A stretch of 23,642 bases of DNA from Vezdaea acicularis (lineage: Eukaryota), in NCBI GenBank assembly GCA_026025075.1, contig JAPEUI010000034.1, positions 124,001-147,642 on the forward strand, read 5' to 3'. Below the pieces are notes generated by a model. That model did not search any database. It had not been told where the DNA came from and saw only the letters and a list, made by a program, of their open reading frames with translations. Every line of letters begins with the position of its first letter. The first letter of the stretch is position 1. Positions 3 to 23,642 of the stretch are shown here, in pieces. A program made the position numbers and the translations under genes.

Positions 3-2435
3 AAAACTGGCCCCTTTGAGATGATGCTTCAGGAGCTGCAGTCCTTTGAGGACCTCAAAGTAGCATTCATCACCGCCCCCGTACTGCAGCATTTTGATCC
101 CAAGAAGAGGATCTTGATTGAGACGAATGCCTTTGGCTTTGCTATTGCCGGCATCCTCTCACAACCTGCTGACGATGCGCCCAAGGACAGCACGCAACAG
201 CATTGGCATCCCGTCGCCTTCTGGTCAAAGAAGATGGAAGACGCGAAGACCCGCTATGAGACCCATGACGCTGAGCTTCTAGCCATCATCAAGGCGTTCA
301 AGCACTGGCGGCACTACCTCGAGGGTAGTCGCCATACCATTAAGGTCCTGACGGACCACAACAATCTTAAATACTCCATAAGCACGAAGGCGCTCAACAA
401 TCGGCAAGCCCGCTGGGCAGAGACTCTTGCCGCATATGACTTTGAGATTGAGTATCGGCCGGAGAAGAATAACCCCGCCGACGGACCCAGCAGGAGACCT
501 GACTATGGGTCCGATGATAAGGGATTAGGGGCTTCAATGCTGCCTACCCTACAACGCAAGCTTGCCTACCTTGCTAAGAACAAGGGAGGCGTGGAAGCTT
601 ATGTTCGCGTTGTGCGTAGGGCTACCGCTGAAGGTGAGCCCTACTCTTTTCACGGCTGTTTAGCCGGATACCACATGGCGGCCCTGCAGGATCAGCAGGC
701 CGACGCGCACCATGCGGTGAGCTTGCGGGATCAGCAAGCTGGAGTACGACAACGTCCAGACAGTGCTCAGGGCGACCCCATTGAGGTTGAAGAAGACCCC
801 AGTCCGATACCCACTGAGGGAATGTTGGCGGTGAGTACAGGTGTGTCGACGCACCTGGTACCCTGGTTGATGGCAGCAAGTGCTGCTTTGACCGAATTGG
901 CATATGAGGACCCAAGCCCTATCTTGCTCGAGCTGATATCATAGACGCAGAGCGGGAACACCTTAACAGCGGATATCAAGAAGAGTCTAGGGAACGATGA
1001 CAGGACCGTAGCCGGATCGCATCCAGATAAGTGGGGAATCGATAGCAAAAGCCTGTTACAATTTGAAGGCAAGATATATGTGCCACAGGATGCAGCGTTG
1101 AGGGCGGAGATCATAAAGATCCACCACGATGACCCGTATGCGGGACACTTTGGAGCCGCCAGGAAGACGGCTCTGTTGACCCGCAAATACTGCTGGCAAA
1201 CCTTGAGAAAGGAGGCCAGCGACTATGTCCGCGAATGCAACATATGTCAGAGAACCAAAGCACCGCGGCATAAGCTCTACGGGGAGATGCAAGCGCTACC
1301 TTTGCCCAGCAGGCCATGGGAATCAATCACCATGGACCTCATCACAGGGTTGCCGCCCAGCCTAGCTACCGTAGGCGGGGCGGATACGCAAGATGCGGAC
1401 CTCAATGAGGAGACAAGGGCCTACGATGCTATCCTTGTGATAGTCGATTGGTATACAAAGATGGCTATATATATCCCTATCCGTAAGACCCTTGACGCGG
1501 TAGGCCTCGCTGACATCATCTTTGAAAAGGTAATAAGATCCTACGGCACACCGGCGTCAATCGTCACGGACAGGGGAAGCATCTTTACGAGCCAGTATTG
1601 GTCCACCCTCTGCTTCCATATGAAGGTGAAGCGGCGGCTGAGCACTGCCTTCCATCTGCAGATGGACGGACAGACGGAGAGACAGAATCAGACGCTCGAA
1701 CAGTATTTGCGATGCTACGCCAACTACCATCAAGACAATTGGGTGTCACTGTTGTCGACAGCGGAGTTTGCGTATAATAAAAGCAAGCATTCCGCCACCG
1801 GCAAATCGCCGTTCAAAGCCCTGATGAGATATCTACCGCCCGCACCATGGGACATCGAGGACGATGCCCCTAGGGGGAAGGCGCCGGCTGCACGCGAGAG
1901 AATCAAGAGGCTCATAGAAGCCAGAGATGGAATGGCATCCCGATGGGAAGCCGCGAAGGAGGCACAGGCGCGCTATTATAACGCCCATCACAAGCCTCAG
2001 GGGTTTGCCATAGGACAACTTGTCCTGCTATCGTCTTGAAACATAAGAACGAGACGCCCTAACAAGAAGCTGGATCACCGCTGGCTGGAACCGTTTGAGG
2101 TGGAAGCGATCATAGGCAAGCAAGCCTATCGATTGAAGCTGCCAACGACATATAAGGCCATCCATCCGGTGTTCCATGTTTCATGTCTAGAGCCCTATAA
2201 GGGGACCGCCAAGGCTCCGCTAGGGCAACTACCCCTATTGGTAGAAGGCGAAGAAGAACGGATCGTAGAGAAAATCCTTGATGAACAAGGTTCCGGCAAA
2301 GAGAAGCAATATCTAGTACGATGGGAAGAATACCCGCCGTCGGAAGACACTTGGGAGCCTAAGTCAAATCTAAGCAATGCTAAAGAGGCGATAAAGACGT
2401 ATGAAGAGGATAAGAGGCAGCAGCGTCAACGGTAG
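3..2435 (+). pseudogene. pol: pol 3' part: RNase H, integrase (HHCC, DDE, GPY/F), chromodomain; two in-frame stops
   Basis: ORFs 21-944, 1080-2039 and 2100-2435 share one frame, split by TAG (942-944) and TGA (2037-2039). Motifs: HPVAFWSKK, ELLAII..FKHWRHYLEG, TDHNNL, HDDPYAGH..CNIC, MDLITGLP, TDRG, GQTERQN, IHPVFHVS, YLVRWEEY..EDTWEP. Conserved residues are mutated (ETNAF, VDWY, FHLQMDGQ). Confidence 0.93.
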
Positions 2436-2660: not shown

Positions 2661-4024
2661 TTAATCCTCCGCCGCATCCTCCACTCCAGCGGCACCACCA
2701 GCATCCTTCCCATGGTCTTCGTCAGTCCCGAAATCAATGTCAGGGCTCGATTCCACTTTAATCTTACCCTTCTTCAGGCGCTTTGCCGCAGGCAGATTGT
2801 TGTCATCACCAGCGTCCAGGAGCTTGCCACGACGCTGAGTGGGCCGCTTGCGGGTAAGCACCTTACCAATATGAGTTACCCCTGAGAGTCGGTAAACTGG
2901 GGGACAGCAGTAGACTTGAAGCGCATTGTCAGAGGCAGGATGACAAGCTTCCTCTCCATCTCCTGCTGGCAATGGGTCTGGAAGAGCTCAAGACCATGCT
3001 GCCGCAGACATACCGTCAGCGGACATACGAGGGCAGCTGGAATAGGCACTTACAGTATACCGCATCATATCATGTACCCCAGCAGCAAAATCCCGCACAT
3101 CCTGCATGAAAACAACCATCCTCTCGTCGGCAGGCAGCTTATTGAACTGCTCATGGTCCGCATGAACGTCTTCAAACCGATTGACAAGGACATCAAGCAC
3201 CTGCTTATCCGGGAATTTGTCGTGTTTCATGGTGTCGAAATGCATTTAAATGTCCCAAAGGACAGGTCAGAGAGCTTGAGGAACCTAGTACCGTCAGCGA
3301 TATCCTAGCGGTACAAAAGGGAGATACTCACCGGATGACATGTTTTGCGCCCAAAGACGCACCAAATGCAGGCCAAAGCCCAAGAACCCACCGCCGGACC
3401 GCACATCTGCTTGGGATCGTCATAGTAGTGCTTGGCGCAGCGGACACAGCAGGGACGAAGAAGACCAGAAGAAGGTTGCATGGAAGCCAGCAAGTTGAAA
3501 AGGTCAGGAGCATCGCACCCCGGCTGAGCCCCTACAGTACGAGGAGCGCCAGCAGCGAGAACCGGATCAGGAAGAGGATCGAGAGGCGAAAGGTCAGCCA
3601 GAGGCGTCATTTCGACAAAGCCAGTTGGAGTAGTTGGCGCAGCAGCAGAAGATGGAGCTGCTTGTATTGCCGGCGAAAAGACAGGGGCAAGATCAGGCCG
3701 ACCAAGGAAACTCATCCGCTTGTCCAAAAGCGAGATAGGAACAATCTCCATACCATGAGGACGCAGACGAGGAAGATAGAAGCGGACGCCGTTAGCTATG
3801 TCTGCCGCCAGAGCTGTAGCAGGGTATGGAAGAACCATTGTTGGAGTAGCAGCCTGCCCAGCACTTGCCGTAGGCTCACCGCCAGAGGCAAGGACAGACG
3901 AAGGAGCCGGACCAGAAGAGAGAAAAGCCAAGACACCAGAGGCAGAGGCAGAAGCCACGTCAGAGAGCCGCAGAAGAAAGCCAGACGGAGAACCCCCGGA
4001 CGTATCGTCCAATGGGGAAGCCAT
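2661..4024 (-). pseudogene. Antisense spliced accessory gene of the retrotransposon; Pro/Ala/Ser-rich N-terminus, Zn2Cys6-like motif, basic NLS-like and acidic C-terminus
   Basis: Exons 4024-3332, 3284-3054, 2998-2661. Introns 3331-3285 (GTGAGT..GCTGAC..TAG) and 3053-2999 (GTAAGT..GCTGAC..CAG), both phase 0. Intron 1 joins ORF 3305-4024 to the frame of ORF 2988-3245. Exon 2 has two stops explicable as C>T; exon 3 needs one frameshift near 2880 to reach the KRP/KRLKK tail. Confidence 0.75.
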
Positions 4025-4539
4025 CGCTGTCTGTATGATCAGAGACAGCGAGAAGCAGAAGGCAGAGAGCGAAGAAGAGACGCCAGCGGCAAGAAGACGG
4101 AGAGAAGACAGGAAGTGTCAGGGCACGAGGTGTCCAGACACTGCAAGGACAAGGCGTCCTGATACGGGTTTATGATGAAAGAGATGCGTGGAGTGATGAA
4201 TAGGAAGGATGGTTGAGAAAGGCGGGAGATCCACGCTTTATGCGGGGCTTCCCTGGCTGCAGAAGTCGCCGATGACGCCTTCTATTCACTTCTTTGAGCT
4301 GCTATACGTCAGTATAGCATGCATACAACGTTCTAGCCGCCTACGAAGCATAGACGGCAAAGACGCAGGGTAGCTCACCTCACTGTTCAACTCACTTCAC
4401 TTCGTCAACTCGCCTCAGTACACCGCTTCACCTCATCTAGGGGATCTACCGAGCAGTCTCACGAGACAGCAGATAGCCGCAAGCGGCATATATGAAGGGT
4501 ACAACCCTAAGATATCTGAGAGGCTCGGGGATGAGCCTT

Positions 4540-4553
4540 AGGAAGAGAGGGGG
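4540..4553 (+). promoter_or_regulatory. Polypurine tract (plus-strand primer)
   Basis: AGGAAGAGAGGGGG, 4 nt before the LTR start TGTAAG at 4558. Confidence 0.88.
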
Positions 4554-4557
4554 CAGT

Positions 4558-5340
4558 TGTAAGACGCCGCAGTAGCTTTTTTGGTGGCCCGCCAGCGGAG
4601 CTAGGTGAGCTAAGCAAGATGAGCGCCGCCTAGGGCCTAGCCCAGGGGCAGAGCTGATCGAGCTCCTTACCTATATATGCCGATGGCATTACCCCGATGG
4701 CTCGTCATCGAATAGTTTCCTACTATATGCTATAGCTAGATTGTACAAAGCTTCATTATATCTATATGGCCCCATTGTATATATATTGCCCCATATAATT
4801 GGGCAAATATCATTATATCCCAAGCATATTATTATATCTAGTTATCGTAGCCCGCGTATGCCTAGTGAGCGTATGCTCCCTTGCCACAAGTAGGACGCAG
4901 ACGTTGTACGCCTGCCACGCTTTCAGGAAAGAAACAAAGCTTGTGTAAGAACGCGGTGGCATCCGCCTAGAGCGCGCCGGCGCGCCCTAGACGGCTGTTC
5001 TTGCTTAGACGCCAGCGGCGCTCAGGGGGCGCTTAGTCAGCACGCCCCTTATATATATATTGAGTCGGGTCCGCTAGGGACGCGGCATCAAATAGTCTTG
5101 ATCTATAGCTAGTTCTTGGAATCTATTCATGTAACCGCAATTCATTCATTATATCACCATACCGCTATATCTATATAGCCTTGTGACATCGCTAGCTACC
5201 GCCGGTGGCCTGTCTACCCCTATAGCCTATTGAACACGCAGTGACACCACAGGCGGGCCGCAAACAGCGCCGGCTTACCACGCTCTCAGAATCAGGGGCA
5301 GCTATCGTGCCCGTCTTTACAGCTCATGCCTACCCTTACA
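4558..5340 (+). repeat. 3' LTR (family A, ~400 bp), interrupted by a solo LTR
   Basis: TGTAAG (4558) and CTTACA (5340) inverted termini. Removing 4944-5326 restores a 3' end colinear with the older copy at 5341-5420. Confidence 0.85.
4944..5321 (+). mobile_element. Solo LTR (family B, 378 bp) nested in LTR A
   Basis: TGTAAGA...TCTTTACA termini. Flanks GCTTG and GCTCA are both one transition from GCTCG (5-bp TSD). Homologous reverse copies at 12297-12938 and 13180-13387. Strand is relative only. Confidence 0.85.
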
Positions 5341-5420
5341 TCTTTGCCGCAAGCAAGATGCAGATGTTATACGCCTATCACGCTTTCAGAAAAAGAGTAG
5401 AGCTTATGTTCATCCTTATA
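5341..5420 (+). repeat. Older degenerate 3' end of a family A LTR
   Basis: Aligns by eye to 4878-4943 plus 5327-5340 with mostly transition differences; ends CCTTATA versus CCTTACA. Confidence 0.8.
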
Positions 5421-5913
5421 TTATCATTGCATCTAGCTTCTATCTACAAGTTTATGAATTTTTAGGAGTTAACCCACACGCTCATAGATTTTTGTCTCTT
5501 AATAAAGCACTGGTTTATCCTTACAAGTCTTTTTTTATCAAGACCTCAAATTGTAAATACAATGCAAGAACCAGTATGTAAATTATTAAAAAAGAATGCT
5601 AATAGTCTAAAATATATATTTGCAGTTTTTTTTTACATGAATACTTGTGATATTAAAAGATTTTGAGCAGATTAAAAAGATAGAAGAAAATGTCTAGAAA
5701 TTGCAATTTTAACATAATATAAGCTAGCTATATGTGTTAAACTGATGAAAATAATTTTATATATAATATTTTATCTTTCATATCAATTCAAATACATTCT
5801 AGATTAAATTAATTAAGTTATGCTTGCTTGCGCTGCTTAACGGAGGATTTTTGGCTGCTTTGCCATTGCAACAATATTATGATGTTAAGCAAGAACCTGG
5901 AAAAGACTTGTAA
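5421..5913 (-). repeat. AT-enriched retroelement relic (internal 3' region, PPT, start of family C LTR); inverted copy of 11469-11955
   Basis: Reverse complement is colinear with 11469-11955 over ~490 bp, with differences mostly C>T/G>A. 5421-5525 matches the end of LTR 12362-12772. Confidence 0.85.
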
Positions 5914-6766: not shown

Positions 6767-9700
6767 ATGAATCGCCAGGCTGAGAAACTCGAGTCTCTTC
6801 AAGAGCTTCTTAAAGATACCAATATATCCTATCTAAAGGACTTGACAGCTCCCGAGCATCCGCAAGTAGAGTAAGTGTGCTATCTCCATCAAAATTGATA
6901 TAACTAATCATAGATATGTCGCCAGCCTTGTTGCGGTGCATGGCCTGAGAATACCATTCAATATTCCGCCTTGGAAAGATGAGCATGCATTTGGCGTCAA
7001 GACCTGGGTTGCTGGAAAGCCAAATAAGGAGGTACTATGGCTCAAAGATCTCCTTCCTGATAGGATTGAGAACGCAAGAGTACTCCTCTTTGGCTACAAT
7101 TCAAATGTTGGCCTGGACACAAGCACTGCAGGTGTTAGCGGTGCGGCAGAGAACTTGCTGGCAAAACTGAAGAACAAAAGACAGGTACTCTCTGTTAACA
7201 ATCTCACTTATTGTGGACGCCGTATTGACAAAAAGACAGGAGGACCCCAATAGGCCCATCATGTTTATTTGTCATAGCTTAGGCGGCATCGTGGTGAAAC
7301 GAGTTAGCATTTATCATTTCAGGCTTGGAGTTGTGCACAGCTAAAGCATATCTTCAGGCTATATCGAAAGCGAGGAGCAGTTTACAGTATCAAGAACTTT
7401 ACAAGCATGTACAAGCTATTGCTTTCTTTGCAACTCCTCATCGGGGTGGACTAGCGGCAAGGCCTGGGTAAGTTTTGATATCTCAACATCTTCCTCACTT
7501 TGACTTAATAGCAAGTAGCCAGGTAATCGCTGGTGCCTTAAGGCGTCTCACGGGGAATTTACGAAACTCCATATTGGAGGCTTTACGCGATGATTCTCTA
7601 ATCTCCTCTGACATTCATAAAGACTTCTTGGATTCATTAAGCGATGCCAAAATTCGTACCTGCAGCTTTTACGAAGCGAGAGCTATGCCAGGGCTAAATC
7701 GATTAGTAAGTTACCTTCAGGTTGAAGAGAATTCATACCTAATTTTTGTCAGGTGGTTGACCAGTACTCAGCTATACTCGGTCTTCCATTCCCGCAAGAA
7801 GCGACATATCAGGTTCCAGAATCGGACCATTCAACAATATGCAAATTTGAAGCCAAGACACAGAACTATAACGATGTTATCGAACAGATATCAGATTTAG
7901 TAGATTGGACCATCAATTCACCTGTTCTGTCCAATAAAACTAATACAGTGCTGCGCCCACCTCTCTTGCGCTCATTTTCCGATACAAGCTCTGTTACGGA
8001 CTCTCACATAGATGCCACCGATTCGCAGACCTCTATTTCTACCCTTCTGTCACCTTTTCGTATCTTCTCTAGAGCAGTCTCACCAAAACTTAGAGATGGA
8101 CCGTTTTATTTACTACCGGATACCACTAGCTTCAAGTTTACAGGCCGAGAGTTTATTATGACCCTTATCCGGGAGAACTTAAGTCTCAGTTACAATCAGC
8201 AGACAAGATTGGCGTTATACGGCTTAGGTGGTGTGGGTAAAACTCAAATTGCCCTCGAAGTTGCCTCGTGGTACAGGCAGGAGTATCCGCAACGCTCAAT
8301 ATTCTGGGTTCGCGCCGGAAGCACCACACTGTTTATGCAGTCTTTAAAAGACATCGCCACCATTTGCAACTTGGTTAGGCCGGGGGATGCCGCAACAAAC
8401 TGGCTCGATGAAGTGCAGCACTTTCTACTTGATGAAGATAATGGGAAATGGTTAATGATAATTGACAATGCTGACAATGCTGATACTTTCAGCAATACAA
8501 CTCAGTCTTCTCGCAACACCGAGCATAACTCTAAAGGCCCGCGGAGGGTTCCTCTTATCGCTTACATACCAAGGTGTGCTAACGGGCAAATCTTATTCAC
8601 GACAAACAGTAAGGCAGTTGCAGGACAGCTGACCACGCAGGGCCAGATGATTGAGGTACTACCCATGGACCAACACGACTCTTTGAACCTACTTAGGAGA
8701 CATCTCGACGAAACCATTTACCTATCCGTCAACCCTCCAAGCTATCAAAAGGAGGTCCCCGAAGAGCAAGATTTGAAAAAACTTTGTGGGCATCTTGGTT
8801 ATCTGCCGTTAGCATTGGCTCAAGCTGCAGTATATATACGCCAGCAGAGTCTGACCGTCAATGAGTATATAAAATTGCTCGAGCTTAACGATTCCAGCCT
8901 ATCAGATCTGCTCGAGTATGACTCTCAAGCATCGGCGTTAGATGACCATCTTTCCAAAGCGGTTGCAAATACTTGGAAAGTGGCATTTGATCAAATCGAC
9001 TCTAGATGGCCAGCAGCAACTGCCCTACTTTCGCTCATGGCATTCCTCGATTCACAGAGCATTCCCAAATTCTTGCTGAGAAAATTTGAGCCCGATGAAA
9101 GGCAGCTTACTGCAATAGCTTTGGGGACTCTTCAGGGATATTCTCTTGTAAATGTTGAGCCTGCGACTGAAACAGTCAATATACACAAATTGATACAGCT
9201 CGCAGTGAGGAAACGCCTCTCCTCTGACGGTTCTGCTGCCAAGTGGGCCAGCAAAGCGTTGAAACTCCTTGTCGAAACATTTCCCAACGGAGATTGGGAG
9301 ACCGATGCTGCTCTATTTCCACACGCTTTACAAGTTCTAACAAATGATTACTCCAAATCCTCCAACGAGGACAAAATAATGATTGCCACGCTAGCTTCAA
9401 GAGTCAGCTTGTACTATTTCAATCAATTCAACTTTACAGAAGCGGAGAACCTCAGTCAGCAATCATGGGAACATATACAGTTAGTATCCAATCCACCCGA
9501 AGAACTTATCCTAAACATCAAGGCTGTCTGGTCCTTAGCCTTTCGAGGTATGGATCATTTGCAGAAGGCGGAGAAGCTTGCGAAAGAGGTTCTATCAGGA
9601 CGCAAGAAGCTGCTCGGCAAAACTCACGTAGATACATTAGAAATTTGCAATATCCTAACGAGGATCCATCAAGATCGAGGGGACTTCAAATTGGCTGCCG

Positions 9701-10767
9701 GGATAGTAAGTCGGACGCTTAAGAGTCTGCAGAGTATAGAGAGTCTTGATGCAAAGGACATCAGAATTCAGAATGCAAAGGAACAGCTTGGCGTTCTCTT
9801 GCGCTTTCTCGGTGATTTCAACGACTCCGAGACGCTCTTACGTGAGGCCTTTGACGGCTATACGAAGGCACTAGGCAGCAAGAATCCGCGGACGCTAAAG
9901 GCAAATCGTAATTTGGCCGCCACTCTTTATTGCAAGGCGAAATACTCCGAGTCCGAGAAGATTGCTAGAGAGACGTGGGCAAATCAAAAACAAACGATTG
10001 GGGAAAATCATCCTGATTGTGTCATAACGCTACTGTTAATTGCGGACAACTTACAAGCGCAAGAGAACGTTGAGCTTGCATTAGCCTCCAAGCGAAAGAT
10101 CTATCAAAAAGCCATCGACAAATTCGGTAATCGGCACAGATACTCTCTACTTGCTGCTGCAAGTTTGGCGTCATGTCTTGTTGCTTCTTATTTGGCTCAC
10201 AATAGCAAAAAATCCCCAATACTCCTCCACGAAGCCGAAACCCTCTATAGACACGTTGCCGAGATTCTAACTACCCGGATACGTCTTAATCACCCAGAAG
10301 CACTAGCCGCGCAGACGGGGATAGCATGTGTGTTGGCCCAGTCTGACAGGCTCCAAGGTGCGGAGAAAATCCAACGCAAGGCGCTGCAGGAGCTGGAGAG
10401 CAGCCTGGGCAAAGAACACCCGTTAACGCTTGCTGCACATGAAAATCTGGTACGTATTTTGTGGGCGCAGGCGGCTACGAAAGGAAAGGTAAAGGAGGCA
10501 CGGAAGCGGGCGCTGAAAGTACTTGAGCTGCGGGAGAAGAAACTAGGTTATGCGCATATAGATACAAGGAAGATTGCGGTGCTAATAATTGAGATGAGTC
10601 CTGACGAGAGGGGAACAGAGAACTTGAAGAAAAAGATAAGGGAAAATGAATACGTAGACAGCGGTAAAGAAAGAATCGGATCAGAGGAGAGTGGGTGGGT
10701 GGACAAGGGGGAGGGGCTAGGAGAGCAGGTGGTTGAGAGCGGAAAGTACAAGGTGGATTGGAAATAA
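6767..10767 (+). CDS. Fungal NLR: SesB-like alpha/beta hydrolase, NB-ARC, TPR repeats (~1245 aa, 6 exons)
   Basis: Exons 6767-6870, 6926-7184, 7240-7302, 7358-7467, 7519-7705, 7753-10767 joined by GT-AG introns give 3738 nt in frame. Motifs: DLVAVHGL, WLKDLLP, ARVLLFGYNS, ICHSLGG, FFATPHRG, DHSTICKF; Walker A GLGGVGKT; Walker B LMIIDNAD; GYLPLALAQAA; TPR turns LGKTH, IGENHP, LGKEHPLTL. Confidence 0.92.
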
Positions 10768-11468: not shown

Positions 11469-11848
11469 TTACTAGTCTTCCCCGGATTCTCGCTTAACAC
11501 CGCAACATCGCCGCAACGGCGGGGCAGCTAAAAATCCCCCATTAAGCAGCGCGAGCGAGCATAGCTTAACCAATTTAATCTAGAATGCGTTAAAATTGAT
11601 ATGAGAGATAGAATACTATGTAAAGAACCATATTTGGCACATCTAGCTAGCTTATGTAATGCCAAAGTTGCGATTTCTAGCCATTTTCTCCTACCCCCTT
11701 AATCTACTCAAGATCTTCTTATACCATGAGTATTCATGAGAAAGAGGACTGCAAATGTATGTTCCAGGCTGCTAGTACCCTCTTCTAATGACTTTTGCAC
11801 TGGCTCTTGCATCGGACTTGCGATTTGCGGCCTTGATAAGAGGAGATT
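11469..11848 (+). repeat. Retroelement internal 3' relic ending in a PPT-like tract; inverted copy of 5526-5913
   Basis: Colinear with the reverse complement of the left arm; GATAAGAGGAGA directly precedes TGTAAGG at 11849. Confidence 0.75.
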
Positions 11849-11955
11849 TGTAAGGATAGGCTAGTGCTTCGTCAAGAGATAAGAATCTATAGGCGTGTGA
11901 GCTAACTCCTAAGAACTCAAGAACTTGCAGGTAAAAGCTGAATGCAATGACAGTG

Positions 11956-12296: not shown

Positions 12297-12938
12297 GTAT
12301 AGATATAACAATATAATGGAAGAATTGCAATTGCATGAATAGACTCTAAGAACTAGCTATGTGTAATGACTGTACTAGCCCCTAGCTTCTATCAAGTCTT
12401 TTGGGATGAATAAGGGGTAAGGAGGCTAGCTTCGCTTCAGCTTCGCTTCTGCTTCGCCTAGCTCTCTAGCACCTAGCATAAGGCCAGGTGGTCCTTAGAT
12501 CACCTGACATAGACGAGCGTAGCTATTAGAGCTGCCGCTTCCCTTAGGATAGCTCTTTAGCAATCAACTCATCTATTCATCTGAATAACTAGTAGGAAGG
12601 CATCCTCGCTTTGCTTCATCTGACCTTTCTCCTATCTTGCCTTGCCTCGTCTTGCCTCGCCCCAGTACTATCACTGCACCTAGTCTTCGTCTGCAAGTTC
12701 TTGAGTCCTTGGGAGTTAGCTCACACGCCTACAGACCCTCGCTCCCTAACAAAGCACTGGCCTGTCCTTACACTATGAGCCAAAACTATTCGATGCCAAG
12801 TCCTTAACAGGACCGGCTTAATATATATGTCAGGAGCGCGTTGATAAAACGTCCTCTGAGCGCCGCCGGTCTCCAAGCAAAGACAGCCGTCTAAGGCACG
12901 CCGGCGCGCCTTAGGCGGATGCCATTGCGTTTCTTACA
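12297..12938 (-). repeat. Partial family B LTR (reverse), interrupted by solo LTR C
   Basis: 12773-12938 and 12301-12361 are contiguous reverse-complement matches to 4944-~5170. Confidence 0.82.
12362..12772 (-). mobile_element. Intact solo LTR (family C, 411 bp)
   Basis: TGTAA...TTACA termini with perfect 5-bp TSD CTATG (12357-12361, 12773-12777). Strand inferred from the PPT-linked copy at 11849. Confidence 0.9.
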
Positions 12939-13179
12939 GCTTTATTACTAGTTATTCAGATAAATAAATAAGTTGATTACTGAGGAGCTATCCTAAGACA
13001 AACAGCAGCTCTAATAATTACTCTCGTCTATGTCAGATGATCTAAAGATCATCTGGCCTTATGCTAGGTGCTAGGGGATTAGGCAAAGCAAAAACAAAGC
13101 TGAAATGAGGCTAGCTTTCCTATCTTTTATTTATCCTAAAGATTTTGATAGAAGCTAAGGACTAGTACAGCCATTACAT

Positions 13180-13387
13180 AATAGATAACATGATGTTATA
13201 TAAAAAAATGTTAATACCTAGCTTATGATTCAAAACTATTTAATGCCAAGTCCTTAATTGGTTCAACTTAATATATATTTTAAGGGCACACTGACCAAGC
13301 ATTCTTTAATAATCAGCAGGCCGTAAGTAAAAATAATTATTTAAGACCCGCCAGCATGTCTTAAGCAGTCAATGCAATGTTTTTATA
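13180..13387 (-). repeat. Heavily AT-mutated family B LTR fragment
   Basis: Colinear with 12773-12938 (e.g. CAAAACTATT.ATGCCAAGTCCTTAA); ends TTTTATA versus TCTTACA. Confidence 0.75.
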
Positions 13388-16724: not shown

Positions 16725-18551
16725 TGTCATGAACCTGCCTTCCCGTGACCGCTGCTACGGCAAGCACCCTTGGCATGCGGTTTTTCGTAAGCGAGTGCCT
16801 TTACGAATGGGTGGATGGTAGCCCTTCGACCGCCTATTCGTAAAGGCATGAACCATTAGCGAGCTATTAGCTACCGGCTGCCTGCGCTTCAAGCGCTCGA
16901 AGCCTGAGGCGGCCGGCTTCACCCTGGGGTCGCTGGGGCGCTCTCGCAAGCGCTTGAAGCGCCCAAAGCTCCGGGCAGCTGGCTTCGCTCCGGGCTCGCT
17001 GGGGCGCTGCTTCAAGCGCTTAAAGCGCTTGAAGCCTGAAGCGGCCGGCTTTGCCCTGAGCTTGCTAGGGTGCTTCCGCAAGCGTTTGAAGCGCTCTGAG
17101 CCTGGAGCGCTCCCGCGAGTGCTTGAAGCACTTGAAGCGCTTGGTTTCCCTGGCAGCTGGTTCCGCTCCAGGCTCGCTGGAAGTTCTGCTTCAAGTGCTT
17201 GAAGCGCTTGAAGCGCGGAGTAGCCGGCTCTGCTCCAGGCTTACTAGAGCTCTGTTTTAAGCACTTGAAGCACTTAAAGCCTTAGGCGACCGGCTCCGCT
17301 TTAGACTTGCTGAAGCGTTCCTATAAGTGTTTTAAGTGCTTTAAATGCTTGAAATTTAATACATTCATTTTTGCAATGTGTTTATTGAATCAAAAATTTT
17401 AAATCTTTACGCAATTGCAGTTTTGCTTATACTTGGTATTTTAATTTCTTCAAGTATTCTAAAAATAATAAATTAATCATGATACAACATGTATCAATAT
17501 GAACTGCATAAAGTTTTAAATATCACAAATGAAATAAATGAACGCATCTATTAAATCTAATTGATTTATGCTTCAATTATTTTTAAAATATCAAATTGCA
17601 AGGAATTTTTTAAAAATGTTAGTATTAGTTATTTTCAAATATGATTTGTTTTATTGCTCAAAAAAATTCTTGATAAAATCATACCAATGTTTTTCCATTA
17701 ATTATTTTCATCAATATCTAATAAGATTTCAACTATTTTTATCAATTATTTTCTTTTTTAATATTAAATTAATTAATTAAAAATTAATAATATTAAGATA
17801 CTAAAATATTCCATTCAATAATTGAAATAATTTTTTTAGCAGTGCAAAACGCTCAAAATAGGCAATTTGAGCGTGGAATGCATTGCGCTTCAAGTGCTTC
17901 AAGCGTTCCAAGCGCTCATAGAAGCGCTCTAGCAAACTCGATGAGAAGCTAGCTGCCGGGAACTTGAAGCGCTTAAAGCACTTCAAGCGCTCTTGAAAGC
18001 GCCTCAGCAAGCCTAGGGCACAGCCGATTGCTTTGGGCTTCAAGTGCTTCAAGCACTTGAAGCAGCGCTTGCGGCAGCACCCCAGCGAGCCCGAAGCAAA
18101 GCCGGCTGCCCCAGGCTTGGAGCGCTTCAAGCGCTTGTGGGAGCGCCCCAGCAAGCCCGGGGCGAAGCCAACTGCCCCAGGCTTCGAGCGCTTAAAGCGC
18201 AGGCAGCCGGTAGCTAATAGCTCGCTAATGGTTCATGCCTTTACGAATAGGCGGTCGAAGGGCTACCATCCACCTATTCGTAAAGGCACTCGCTTACGAA
18301 AAACCGCATGCCAAGGGTGACGGCAAGCCTGCGCTACCCCTGCGTCACGTGACCGCTGTCATATAGCAAAGCGGGGAAGCGCTGTAGAATAGCTCCCTAG
18401 TATTCAATCGTATAGATACTTACTATTGACTACTAAACCATTCTACCATCTATTGCGAGCCCCCTGCGTGTGTACTGCGTGCCTACTGCGTCCCGCATCA
18501 CTTATCCGAATTGATCCTAGCCGCTCCCTGCTCGTACGCTATATTCTCACA
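16725..18551. mobile_element. Solo LTR (~264 bp) split by the foldback element
   Basis: TGTCATGAA...TTCTCACA termini and 5-bp TSD CCACG (16720-16724, 18552-18556). Confidence 0.75.
16765..18319. mobile_element. Non-autonomous foldback-type TIR element (1555 bp), 8-bp TSD
   Basis: 16765-16906 and 18178-18319 are inverted repeats with 2 mismatches in 142 bp. TSD ACGGCAAG (16757-16764, 18320-18327). Subterminal ~66-bp arrays, AT-rich core, no transposase. Confidence 0.92.
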
Positions 18552-20773: not shown

Positions 20774-22420
20774 TCACACTATCCAAGTGATCTGGGATGT
20801 TGCCTGCGTGACACCAAGTTCTTGTTGTGCCTCGACGCCAGTCGTATACGGTGACAGGTGCGCGTAGTTGTTCTCTGCCTGCGCGATCCACACCTCGACT
20901 TTCTTGCTCTCCGTATTGGCAGATTTGATCATGTACAAGTCTCCATTCGCGCCGATATTGATAATTTCCGAGCCGAATTTGAAAGGGACGGCAACAGACT
21001 GGCTAGTTTTGGAGTCCCCTAGATAGTTCGCATTCCCGCGAAGGCAACGAATTCGGAGGGATGATGCATCCTGCTGGTTGTCTTTGTTGATCAAATATAG
21101 ATCTCCACCACTGATGGTGAATTTGTCTGCCGTGACGGAAGCTTCGAAGCCTGTCACATAGCGTTGAATGGTCTGGAAGTGCTGCTCGCACGGGGCAAAA
21201 TAAACCTCAATAAAGCCACTGCTGGTATTTTTCATCTTGATGAAATACAAGTCCCCATTGTCGATCGTAAAGACACCATTTGCCACAAGCTTGGATCTGA
21301 AAGCCGTGACGATGGGTTTATCATACTCGGACTCGTAAAATGCAGGGCCAGGCACGCGAATGACTTCGACAAAGTCTTCAGCCGTCTCGGTTCTGATGTG
21401 ATAGAGGTCACCGTTATCGACTAATAAATCTCGTCCGGAAACATTCTTGTTCAAGATCGGTGTAATTGCAAGAACAGGAGGAGCGCTGTAGGTTGCCTGC
21501 GAGCTGTCTGCGGAAGCAGTGACAATGGTGTTGATTTCGAGGAACAAAAACTTCTTCGAGGGCTTTTCCGGAGGTGGAAGTATGTAATAAACATGGTCCG
21601 AAGGCTTTTCCGGAGGTGGAAGAATATAATGAACATGGTTCAGACTTGGTTTTGGGAGTTTCAGAGGGGTATTCGTAAGCTTCTCAAACTCGTTGCGCAG
21701 TTGATTCAGATTCACGCCCTTCATGAAGCGGCGGCTTGCGAGATGTTCCGGCCAAACAACCACCCAAGCCTCTACCATTCGATTCGCGGCGAATTCTTTG
21801 GTGACCTGGACCGTTTGCCCCCAGGTCACCAATTTCAGACTGCTGTTGTCTGAATAGCCCCCGACGAGCACTGAGTGTGACTCGGGAGGCTCATTCGAAC
21901 TGGTTGGAGGGGTCCAAGGTTGTCGATAGTCGAACTCGTCCCTGTTTGACGTTTTGACCTGCAACCCAACCCACACACTGCCGAATATGGCCAGAGCTTG
22001 GCGAATCTCATCCAAATTTTCAGTGATCTTGACCTCTGCAAATGCGATTGCACGCACTCCGTCAGGCCCGCCATTGTCGACGAGATACTTTAGAAGATCC
22101 TGAATGGCTACACCTTGTTTCGGGTCGAAGTTTGGATTTTGAGTCCGATAGAGCTCCATCACCTGATGCATGGAAGGATAGACCTCACGGCCGGTGAGCT
22201 TCGAAGTCACCAGCCGCCGCATGTTAGCCCATGTCACAGGCACGCAGTTGGCATAGCGATCATTTCCGAGCTTCTTCCATGTTCTGAAAGGAGCAAGGTA
22301 GTCCGCAGCTGATGGTAAGACGAGAGGCTCAAGTTTGGGCTGGACTGATGTTTCGGCCACGAGGTTTGCGAATTGAATGGCCGGACCTGGGCTGTCAGGG
22401 ATGTAGCACCCACAAAACAT
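20774..22420 (-). CDS. Papain-fold (C1-like) cysteine peptidase domain plus four ~50-aa NGDLY repeats (beta-propeller-like); intronless
   Basis: 548-aa ORF. LGNDRYANCV (nucleophile Cys), ESHSVLVGGY (His), LVTWG; repeats DNGDLYHI, DNGDLYFIK, SGGDLYLI, ANGDLYMIK..NT..KVEV. Confidence 0.8.
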   Translation of the reverse strand: MFCGCYIPDSPGPAIQFANLVAETSVQPKLEPLVLPSAADYLAPFRTWKKLGNDRYANCVPVTWANMRRLVTSKLTGREVYPSMHQVMELYRTQNPNFDPKQGVAIQDLLKYLVDNGGPDGVRAIAFAEVKITENLDEIRQALAIFGSVWVGLQVKTSNRDEFDYRQPWTPPTSSNEPPESHSVLVGGYSDNSSLKLVTWGQTVQVTKEFAANRMVEAWVVVWPEHLASRRFMKGVNLNQLRNEFEKLTNTPLKLPKPSLNHVHYILPPPEKPSDHVYYILPPPEKPSKKFLFLEINTIVTASADSSQATYSAPPVLAITPILNKNVSGRDLLVDNGDLYHIRTETAEDFVEVIRVPGPAFYESEYDKPIVTAFRSKLVANGVFTIDNGDLYFIKMKNTSSGFIEVYFAPCEQHFQTIQRYVTGFEASVTADKFTISGGDLYLINKDNQQDASSLRIRCLRGNANYLGDSKTSQSVAVPFKFGSEIINIGANGDLYMIKSANTESKKVEVWIAQAENNYAHLSPYTTGVEAQQELGVTQATSQITWIV

Positions 22421-23125: not shown

Positions 23126-23375
23126 CAGTGATAGGTCATAAGTGTTGTACATTTTGCGAGATCGCTAGTATTTGATATAACCACCCCAAGGATCAAGGGA
23201 TACCTGAATTCGACGGTGTGTCAATTTAATTACGTTATCAAACGCCTTGCTGCTCTGTATGCACCTTCTATCTGAAACTCATTGACCGCAATACGCTTCA
23301 TTGTGATAGTTTTGTTGGCTTGCGGTGCTCGTGATCTGGGGGAGGCGAATGTACAACACTTATGACCTGTGACTA
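23126..23375. mobile_element. Tc1/mariner-type MITE (250 bp)
   Basis: 28-bp TIRs CAGTGATAGGTCATAAGTGTTGTACATT (3 mismatches), flanked by TA (23124-23125, 23376-23377). Confidence 0.85.
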
Positions 23376-23390
23376 TAGTTACATCATACT

Positions 23391-23642
23391 CTGCGTCTCA
23401 ACCAGCCATGATCGAATCCATCCTGCCTCTCAGCCAGCCATGATCGAATCCATCCTGCCTCTCAGCCAGCCATGATCGAATCCATCCTGCCTCCCAGCCA
23501 GCCATGATCGAATCTATCCTGCCTCTCAGCTAGCCATGATCGAATCCATCCTGCCTCCCAGCCAGCCATGATCGAATCCATCCTGCCTCTCAGCTAGCCA
23601 TGATCGAATCCATCCTGCCTCCCAGCCAGCCATGATCGAATC
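23391..23642. repeat. 32-bp minisatellite, about 8 copies, runs off the window
   Basis: Unit CAGCCAGCCATGATCGAATCCATCCTGCCTCT; ATGATCGAAT recurs at 23408, 23440 ... 23632. Confidence 0.97.

Follow-up and report, generated by a model that had tools for sequence, protein, structure and literature searches.

An antisense, intron-containing gene with a zinc-cluster-like domain between pol and the 3′ LTR of a fungal Ty3/gypsy chromovirus

What occupies the long spacer between the pol gene and the 3′ long terminal repeat (LTR) of a fungal chromovirus, and what might it do for the element? The question is raised by a stretch of Vezdaea acicularis DNA (23,642 nt; assembly GCA_026025075.1, contig JAPEUI010000034.1, positions 124,001 to 147,642 of the forward strand), which is called the window below and which begins inside a decayed Ty3/gypsy chromovirus of an ascomycete, so that the 3′ half of the element lies within it and the 5′ half outside. 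The features of such an element are all present: RNase H, integrase and a C-terminal chromodomain in pol, followed by a polypurine tract (PPT) and an LTR. Pfam recognizes RT_RNaseH (E 2e-32), Integrase_H2C2 (5e-17), the integrase core rve (1e-8), SH3_Tf2-1 and Chromo (6e-17) in the pol translation, which is interrupted by two in-frame stops and ends at a TAG (2433-2435). Between the pol stop (2435) and the PPT (4540) lies a spacer of ~2.1 kb, both ends of which could be located in the sequence where a sequence-only reading of this locus had put them. That reading had also proposed that the spacer carries, on the opposite strand, an element-encoded gene for a zinc-cluster-like protein. We find that the antisense gene belongs to the element, and we consider it somewhat probable that its product is a Zn2Cys6-like DNA-binding protein of the nucleus that regulates the element's own LTR.

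Read on the minus strand, the spacer contains an ATG at 4024 opening a 239-aa open reading frame (ORF; 4024..3305, protein P0001), followed by two phase-0 introns of 47 and 55 nt, each with a GCTGAC branch site, exactly as had been described; intron phases were counted by hand, and the junctions are predicted from the sequence. The six-Cys motif CVRCAKHYYDDPKQMCGPAVGSWALACIWCVFGRKTC (residues 193-229 of P0001) stands at the end of exon 1, and the C-x2-C-x11-C-x10-C-x2-C-x6-C spacing, helical middle and KRP..KRLKK/acidic tail noted earlier were all recovered from the translations. The predicted layout is thus a long disordered N-terminal part, the six-Cys cluster, a helical middle, basic motifs resembling nuclear localization signals and an acidic tail. 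The copy in the window is dead, having two stops and one frameshift in the antisense gene, as the sequence-only reading had counted them (the frameshift as probable), in addition to the two stops in pol. Exon 2 is interrupted by TGA (3269-3267) and TAA (3248-3246), and the KRP..KRLKK/acidic tail sits in a different frame from the rest of exon 3. Because the homologue P0008 (see below) reads exon 3 and tail in a single frame, this shift is attributed to the loss of one base at the G run 2882-2879. A short third intron where exon 3 meets the tail was also weighed but discarded, since the GT..AG span there would be only ~34 nt and P0008 reads through it.

Whether the gene is part of the element was judged from sister copies, namely contigs 80-99% like the window from three DNA metagenome runs of one study. 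One relative contig covers 1506-2714, which includes pol, its stop and the 3′ end of the antisense gene, while others cover 3383-4115 plus 4185-4579, and 3642-4668, leading from exon 1 into the LTR. Because these contigs join pol to the gene and exon 1 to the LTR, diverged sister copies keep the gene between pol and the LTR, which upholds the earlier claim that it is encoded by the element. The gene therefore has the attributes of an antisense additional ORF (aORF-3R): opposite strand, location between pol and the 3′ LTR, and retention in sister copies. All relatives aligned to the window carry C at position 3267 (+), so that the first stop, TGA, is TGG in them. The same data bear on the possibility of a single capture of part of a host Zn2Cys6 gene, or of a host gene or another element nested in this one copy by chance, with no role for the element, since relatives 80-95% alike would not be expected by that account to retain the gene between pol and LTR.

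Homologues of the gene exist in the databases, although few of them. An exhaustive HMMER search with the exon 1 protein P0001 against 1.84 billion representatives matched three proteins: P0003 (79% identity, E 1e-97), P0004 (46% identity, E 7.5e-12) and P0005 (46% identity, E 7.7e-5). Because homologues reach E-values of 1e-97 and 7.5e-12, the antisense ORF is more than a product of chance. P0003 and P0004 are unspliced reads that enter intron 1 at one common point, after which P0004 shifts frame; the spliced eukaryotic gene model P0005 goes on past intron 1 as a clear homologue of exon 2 and the basic/acidic tail, and the stretch homologous to exon 2 is open in it. The position of intron 1 is common to the window gene and the 46%-identity family. 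In the alignment of this family (A1), a block SS[GD]LLRPCC.RCAKHYYDD and the following Cys are conserved, and the N-terminal half is variable. A search with the tail added P0006, which is identical to exon 2 plus tail of the window, P0007, which matches the tail at 81% identity, and P0008, a single ORF (...AVPQFTDSQGVTHI...) spanning exon 3 into the tail. Because P0008 joins exon 3 to the tail, it supports the three-exon model. In P0006 a 192-nt intron, with the donor of intron 2 and a later acceptor, omits exon 3 and resumes from 2861; this was rejected as the main splice form, because exon 3 is conserved and P0008 reads it in one frame with the tail, though skipping of exon 3 as in P0006 may occur as an alternative.

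Both P0005 and P0006 are database entries named as proteins of a V. acicularis metagenome-assembled genome, and both public models look mis-spliced: P0005 removes half of the Cys cluster, and P0006 begins inside exon 2 and omits exon 3. An integrase search among longer proteins for neighbors of P0005 gave 2302 matches, the best at 56% identity among the 120 listed, none of which came from the source of P0005, and an ESM Atlas search with P0005 gave no usable match. A single capture from the host would be consistent with the mere three matches of the window family among 1.84 billion representatives and with the two database models that treat parts of the gene as ordinary hypothetical genes, but it does not explain the existence of a second family at 46% identity.

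A metagenome scan with the antisense protein alignment gave 124 pattern matches, none of which was confirmed, and a scan with an integrase alignment gave 79 chromovirus loci (integrase identity 37-49%). Frames were scanned for C..C.{6,11}C.{5,12}C..C.{6,8}C in the 54 of these that extend 900 nt or more beyond the end of pol, and this six-Cys pattern occurred antisense in 12, at 330-780 nt past the pol end, and in sense frames in none of the 54. Twenty shuffles searched with a looser pattern yielded no antisense match, and the other 341 kb scanned held a single one, likewise just downstream of pol, in the circularly permuted contig of locus L002. By tblastn, such a gene is present in 14 of the 79 loci and is antisense in every one, so that genes homologous or analogous to the one in the window occupy the stretch from pol to the 3′ LTR in other chromovirus lineages; two further loci (L006 and L060) carry decayed motifs of the x11 type. 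The antisense ORFs of L074 and L067 lie within their LTR pairs. The ends of the contigs of L002, L022, L023 and L027 repeat each other over 127-155 nt, so that these contigs represent whole LTR elements, circularly permuted and with their LTRs collapsed.

Eleven related loci fit the canonical Zn2Cys6 spacing and fall into two sets. In groups A-C (six loci; proteins of 164-191 aa counted from the first Met), an N-terminal cluster with an x6 spacer precedes a coiled coil, and in 6/6 the frame, taken from stop to stop, extends over the 3′ end of pol; in groups D/E (five loci), CVRCAKH.. with an x6 spacer is accompanied by a basic patch (TSPRGGEKRKK), a helical part and an acidic tail. The x11 type comprises L002 and L005 besides the window family. 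In group E no more than 2-4 codons of open frame precede the cluster, a GTAAG donor lies ~51-58 nt upstream of the cluster (4/4 loci) with a CTGAC/CTGAT branch motif (3/4), and L067 has an open upstream exon of ~165 codons. Because donor, branch motif and a short open frame precede the cluster, group E genes appear to have an antisense intron as well. An exact look-up of nine antisense ORFs from the loci found none in the protein collection. ESM Atlas look-alikes of an A-C protein form unnamed clusters of 62-210 ascomycete proteins without Pfam families, which suggests that many such genes are unrecognized in fungal annotations.

In a quick maximum-likelihood tree of the integrases, the six A-C loci and the D/E loci fall into separate clades, each with support 100, and all five x11 rows fall inside one group of 13 rows. 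The x6 label requires four changes on this tree, against a mean of 10.5 when shuffled, a value reached in 0/500 shuffles. Because cluster type agrees with the integrase tree, gene type tracks element lineage. Nei-Gojobori dN/dS, another of the checks put forward with the sequence-only reading, was 0.10-0.33 in six non-independent pairs of related-loci genes at 0.52-0.92 amino-acid identity, some with an ORF 3′ end that overlaps pol (groups A-C), and speaks for purifying selection on the antisense proteins of these other lineages. A gene found in three chromovirus lineages at the same place and in the same orientation, in step with the integrase tree and under apparent purifying selection in related families, is poorly explained by a one-off capture or chance nesting, and we consider that explanation largely refuted and very improbable.

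Nor is it easy to suppose that there is no gene at all, and that a strand-biased spacer poor in stops gives rise to the ORFs incidentally, or that the product is a regulatory antisense RNA. The + strand of the spacer is purine-rich (AT skew 0.32-0.34) and has a 275-aa ORF of its own at 3335..4162, so that ORF length favors neither strand, and this strong skew, together with the absence of codon-position bias in the N-terminal part, is what one would expect of such a spacer. However, across families the six Cys and their neighboring residues are where conservation is focused, the intron keeps its position and its splice signals, related families have dN/dS values well under 1, and the motif appeared in 0/54 of the sense-frame scans; we therefore judge the absence of a gene to be highly improbable. 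The copy in the window is the pseudogene of a real gene.

The canonical spacing of PF00172 is C-x2-C-x6-C-x5-12-C-x2-C-x6-8-C, and in an alignment of 16 sequences (A5) the six Cys are the sole invariant columns, the x11 spacer of the window appearing as a five-residue insertion relative to x6. Profile comparison by hhalign, limited to the cluster, linked the window family (A1) to group E (A3) with a probability of 70% (E 4e-5) and group E to groups A-C (A4) with a probability of 73% (E 3e-5). The Zn2Cys6 fold consists of two short helices about two zinc ions, each helix beginning at a C-x2-C, and its members bind DNA that contains CGG. In the AlphaFold model of the 52-residue Cys domain (mean pLDDT 69), short helices occupy 15-23 and 41-45, one behind each C-x2-C (C14-x2-C17 and C40-x2-C43). 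With this model, Foldseek returned three rows in total, Pho7 twice and LAC9 (E 3.5-5.7), and VIA-align against 48,161 chains gave, at Z of at least 2, LAC9 (Z 2.4, rmsd 1.7 Å, 32/33 residues), GAL4 (Z 2.4) and Pho7 (Z 2.2). All of the matches from both programs are Zn2Cys6 domains.

Several results weigh against identifying the domain, and the gene, in this way. The window spacing (x2, x11, x10, x2, x6) fails the canonical PF00172 pattern, its first spacer being five residues too long. Pfam found no match for P0001, P0004 or P0005 at E up to 1, and among ten antisense ORFs of other loci Zn_clus was detected in three at E 0.057-0.67, with 10.6-14 bits against a cut-off of 21. The Foldseek and VIA-align matches are statistically weak at the values given, and an AlphaFold model of full-length P0001 from four sequences was unusable (pLDDT 39). 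The motif is absent from 42/54 loci, some of them within motif-bearing clades (L001, L007-L009, L011, L061 and L072), and the 12 substitutions listed for exon 1 in relatives are spread over codon positions 1/2/3 as 4/5/3 in the best-supported rows, a distribution in which no constraint on the N-terminal part is apparent. Profile searches of the PDB added little: A4 matched LEU3 (E 0.64) and LAC9 (E 0.66) amid coiled-coil noise, neither significant, and A5 gave spurious matches to its N-terminal columns only. The likeness to Zn2Cys6 that had been suggested from the sequence therefore survives in part, in that the six Cys align with canonical clusters and the predicted fold matches only Zn2Cys6 domains, but Pfam Zn_clus stays below threshold. 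We call the window domain Zn2Cys6-like, a predicted resemblance that falls short of formal membership in PF00172.

A cluster followed by a coiled coil or helical part, with basic patches and an acidic end, would have the build of a dimeric fungal activator. On this basis, the element may make its own Zn2Cys6-like, dimeric, nuclear DNA-binding regulator, which would most likely bind the element's own LTR and thereby tune sense transcription or counteract silencing. A near-perfect palindrome with CCG..CGG ends in the LTR (4963-4994) may be proposed, purely as a conjecture, as the site for protein binding; a 76%-similar copy of it is found at 12884-12928, within another LTR-like stretch. Antisense introns read CT..AC on the genomic RNA and survive reverse transcription, a principle exploited in antisense-intron retrotransposition reporters. 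Because CT..AC on the element's genomic RNA prevents splicing, the introns of the antisense gene would be copied at each transposition.

A different function is conceivable for an element-encoded protein of this kind. The Cys cluster might be a protein- or RNA-binding zinc module rather than part of a DNA-binding regulator, and could serve as an integration-complex tether, in particle assembly, or as a copy-number or dominant-negative control factor. Such a module would accommodate the sub-threshold Pfam Zn_clus score in every case and the deviation of the x11 spacer from the canonical one, and antisense aORFs of retrotransposons are described without assigned function in the available text of PMC7264820. 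On the other hand, the sole structural matches are DNA-binding Zn2Cys6 domains, the cluster and following coiled coil of groups A-C reproduce the GAL4 DNA-binding architecture, and the basic and acidic segments suit a nuclear activator. We consider a non-DNA-binding module unlikely, and prefer the reading of the protein as a regulator of the element's LTR. A more far-reaching version of that reading, which we offer as a tentative and rather doubtful proposal, is that several ascomycete chromovirus lineages have long carried a vertically inherited antisense GAL4-type factor with orientation-protected introns and CGG-type LTR sites, serving as a switch-on device or as an anti-silencing shield, which would make it a fungal counterpart of HTLV-1 HBZ or plant VANC. 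Such elements could have exchanged zinc-cluster domains with the largest transcription-factor family of their host.

The features of the element are collected in Table 1. The extent of the LTR was estimated from related-contig depth in run X3, which was mostly ~4-25 over the element interior, 131-283 in bins spanning 4489-5423, and 1.9 past 5423; because depth begins to climb in bin 4489-4675 and drops past 5423, the LTR is ~870 nt long. Upstream of the antisense ATG, relatives have 15-32 other letters in place of a 69-nt stretch (4116-4184), which shows high depth with loose ends in run X3 and so resembles a portion of another repeat. Copies of LTR parts, inverted and 77-86% similar, lie at 12311-12949 (-) and 13195-13300, beside AT-rich stretches (GC 0.35-0.39); they probably stem from a second copy or from a solo LTR that has decayed. 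A scan of the window for bacterial-type promoters and terminators found nothing, its bacterial models being irrelevant to fungal DNA.

Table 1. Coordinates in the window of the chromovirus and its antisense gene.
Feature	Position	Strand	Basis
pol 3′ part, Ty3/gypsy chromovirus	3..2435	+	translation and Pfam
Antisense accessory gene, three exons, ~420 aa if intact, pseudogene here	2661..4024	-	ORFs and homologues P0003-P0008
Exon 3: short conserved stretch, then basic KRP../KRLKK motifs, acidic tail	2661..2998	-	translation and P0006-P0008
Intron 2, 55 nt, GTAAGT..GCTGAC..CAG, phase 0	2999..3053	-	sequence
Exon 2, 77 codons, predicted helical, two stops	3054..3284	-	sequence; P0005 homologue open
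Intron 1, 47 nt, GTGAGT..GCTGAC..TAG, phase 0	3285..3331	-	sequence
Exon 1, 231 codons: low-complexity Ala/Pro/Ser-rich N-terminal part, then six-Cys cluster	3332..4024	-	translation
Zinc-cluster-like domain, C-x2-C-x11-C-x10-C-x2-C-x6-C	3338..3448	-	residues 193-229 of P0001
5′ flank of antisense gene, presumed promoter/5′ UTR (untranslated region)	4025..4539	-	promoter role inferred
Polypurine tract AGGAAGAGAGGGGGCAG	4540..4556	+	sequence; followed by TG...
3′ LTR, TG...CA, ~869 nt, approximate boundaries	4558..5426	+	sequence and contig depth
Near-perfect 32-nt palindrome in LTR, CCGCCTAGAGCGCGCC / GGCGCGCCCTAGACGG, CCG/CGG ends	4963..4994	.	candidate binding site only

Elsewhere in the window, a 1004-aa ORF at 7753-10767 (+) with an NB-ARC/STAND NTPase, DUF7779 and TPR_10/TPR_12 repeats (Pfam) corresponds to a fungal NLR-like gene, and is flanked by inverted AT-rich repeats (5424-5913 and 11469-11950, 75-77% complementary). 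Arrays of 66-nt and ~75-nt direct repeats with AGCGCTT..GAAGCGC motifs occupy 16765-17356 and 17896-18319 and form a 256-nt inverted pair (91% complementary), and a tandem array of 32-nt units (23359-23642) reaches the window end. A 548-aa ORF at 20774-22420 (-) has no Pfam family at E up to 0.1.

The closest cellular counterparts of the window domain are GAL4, LAC9, LEU3 and Pho7 (PF00172), with which it shares six Cys in the order C-x2-C...C...C-x2-C...C, and its predicted fold matches LAC9, GAL4 and Pho7 only. It differs from them in its first spacer of 11 rather than 6, in its sub-threshold Pfam score and in being encoded by a retrotransposon rather than the host; the relatives of the window gene approach PF00172 more closely, their clusters being canonically spaced and accompanied by a coiled coil and an acidic end. 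Among retroelements, HBZ of HTLV-1 is a spliced, antisense-encoded nuclear bZIP factor that modulates LTR transcription. Like the window gene, it is antisense, intron-containing, transcription-factor-like and located at the 3′ end of a retroelement, but its bZIP fold is unrelated and its source is an animal retrovirus, so that the analogy is one of logic only. VANC, encoded by the Arabidopsis transposon VANDAL21, is an accessory factor with sequence specificity that acts on the family it comes from; as an unrelated protein of a DNA transposon, it resembles the proposed anti-silencing function by analogy only.

The nearest precedent in position, which the sequence-only reading did not take into account, is brtn (source paper Zhao et al. 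2011, Virology 417:248). As cited in the available text of PMC7264820, PMC8365987 and PMC4227169, brtn is carried in antisense by Boty-like Ty3/gypsy elements in Botrytis cinerea and in Sclerotinia; like the window gene, it is thus an extra gene of a fungal chromovirus that lies antisense in the stretch from pol to the 3′ LTR. The accessible part of PMC5987419 describes a transcript from Monilinia as matching truncated Pol plus BRTN, as would suit an ORF touching or overlapping the end of pol, such as those of groups A-C. These groups may well represent the brtn family; the exhaustive protein search with window exon 1 gave no match named BRTN, the BRTN sequence itself lying outside that comparison, and the supplements of PMC8365987 make no mention of brtn. 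In plants, antisense aORFs lie between pol and the 3′ LTR of the Ty3/gypsy elements Grande1, RIRE2, Retand and PvRetro13, and share position, orientation and conservation across copies with the window gene (PMC7264820, available text). By the descriptions given there, they differ in kingdom, in belonging to non-chromovirus lineages and in that no zinc cluster is mentioned. For fungal chromoviruses, a figure legend in the available part of Novikova et al. 2010 shows an 'add. ORF' without known function. In the texts available to it, a full-text literature search, which did not extend to the source paper of brtn, found no link between a zinc cluster and an antisense retrotransposon gene.

An antisense extra gene is therefore of a known kind, and what is new is its zinc-cluster identity, its introns and its recurrence across lineages. 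Such genes of LTR retrotransposons have been known for years without an assigned function (PMC7264820, in its available text), and the present one gains a concrete, testable identity as a zinc-cluster module of the kind found in transcription factors specific to fungi. Three chromovirus lineages have such a gene, and in two of them it contains introns, which only an antisense gene could keep through reverse transcription. If the protein does bind the LTR of its element, retrotransposon expression in fungi would have a switch encoded by the element itself, with a bearing on how such elements escape or negotiate genome defense.

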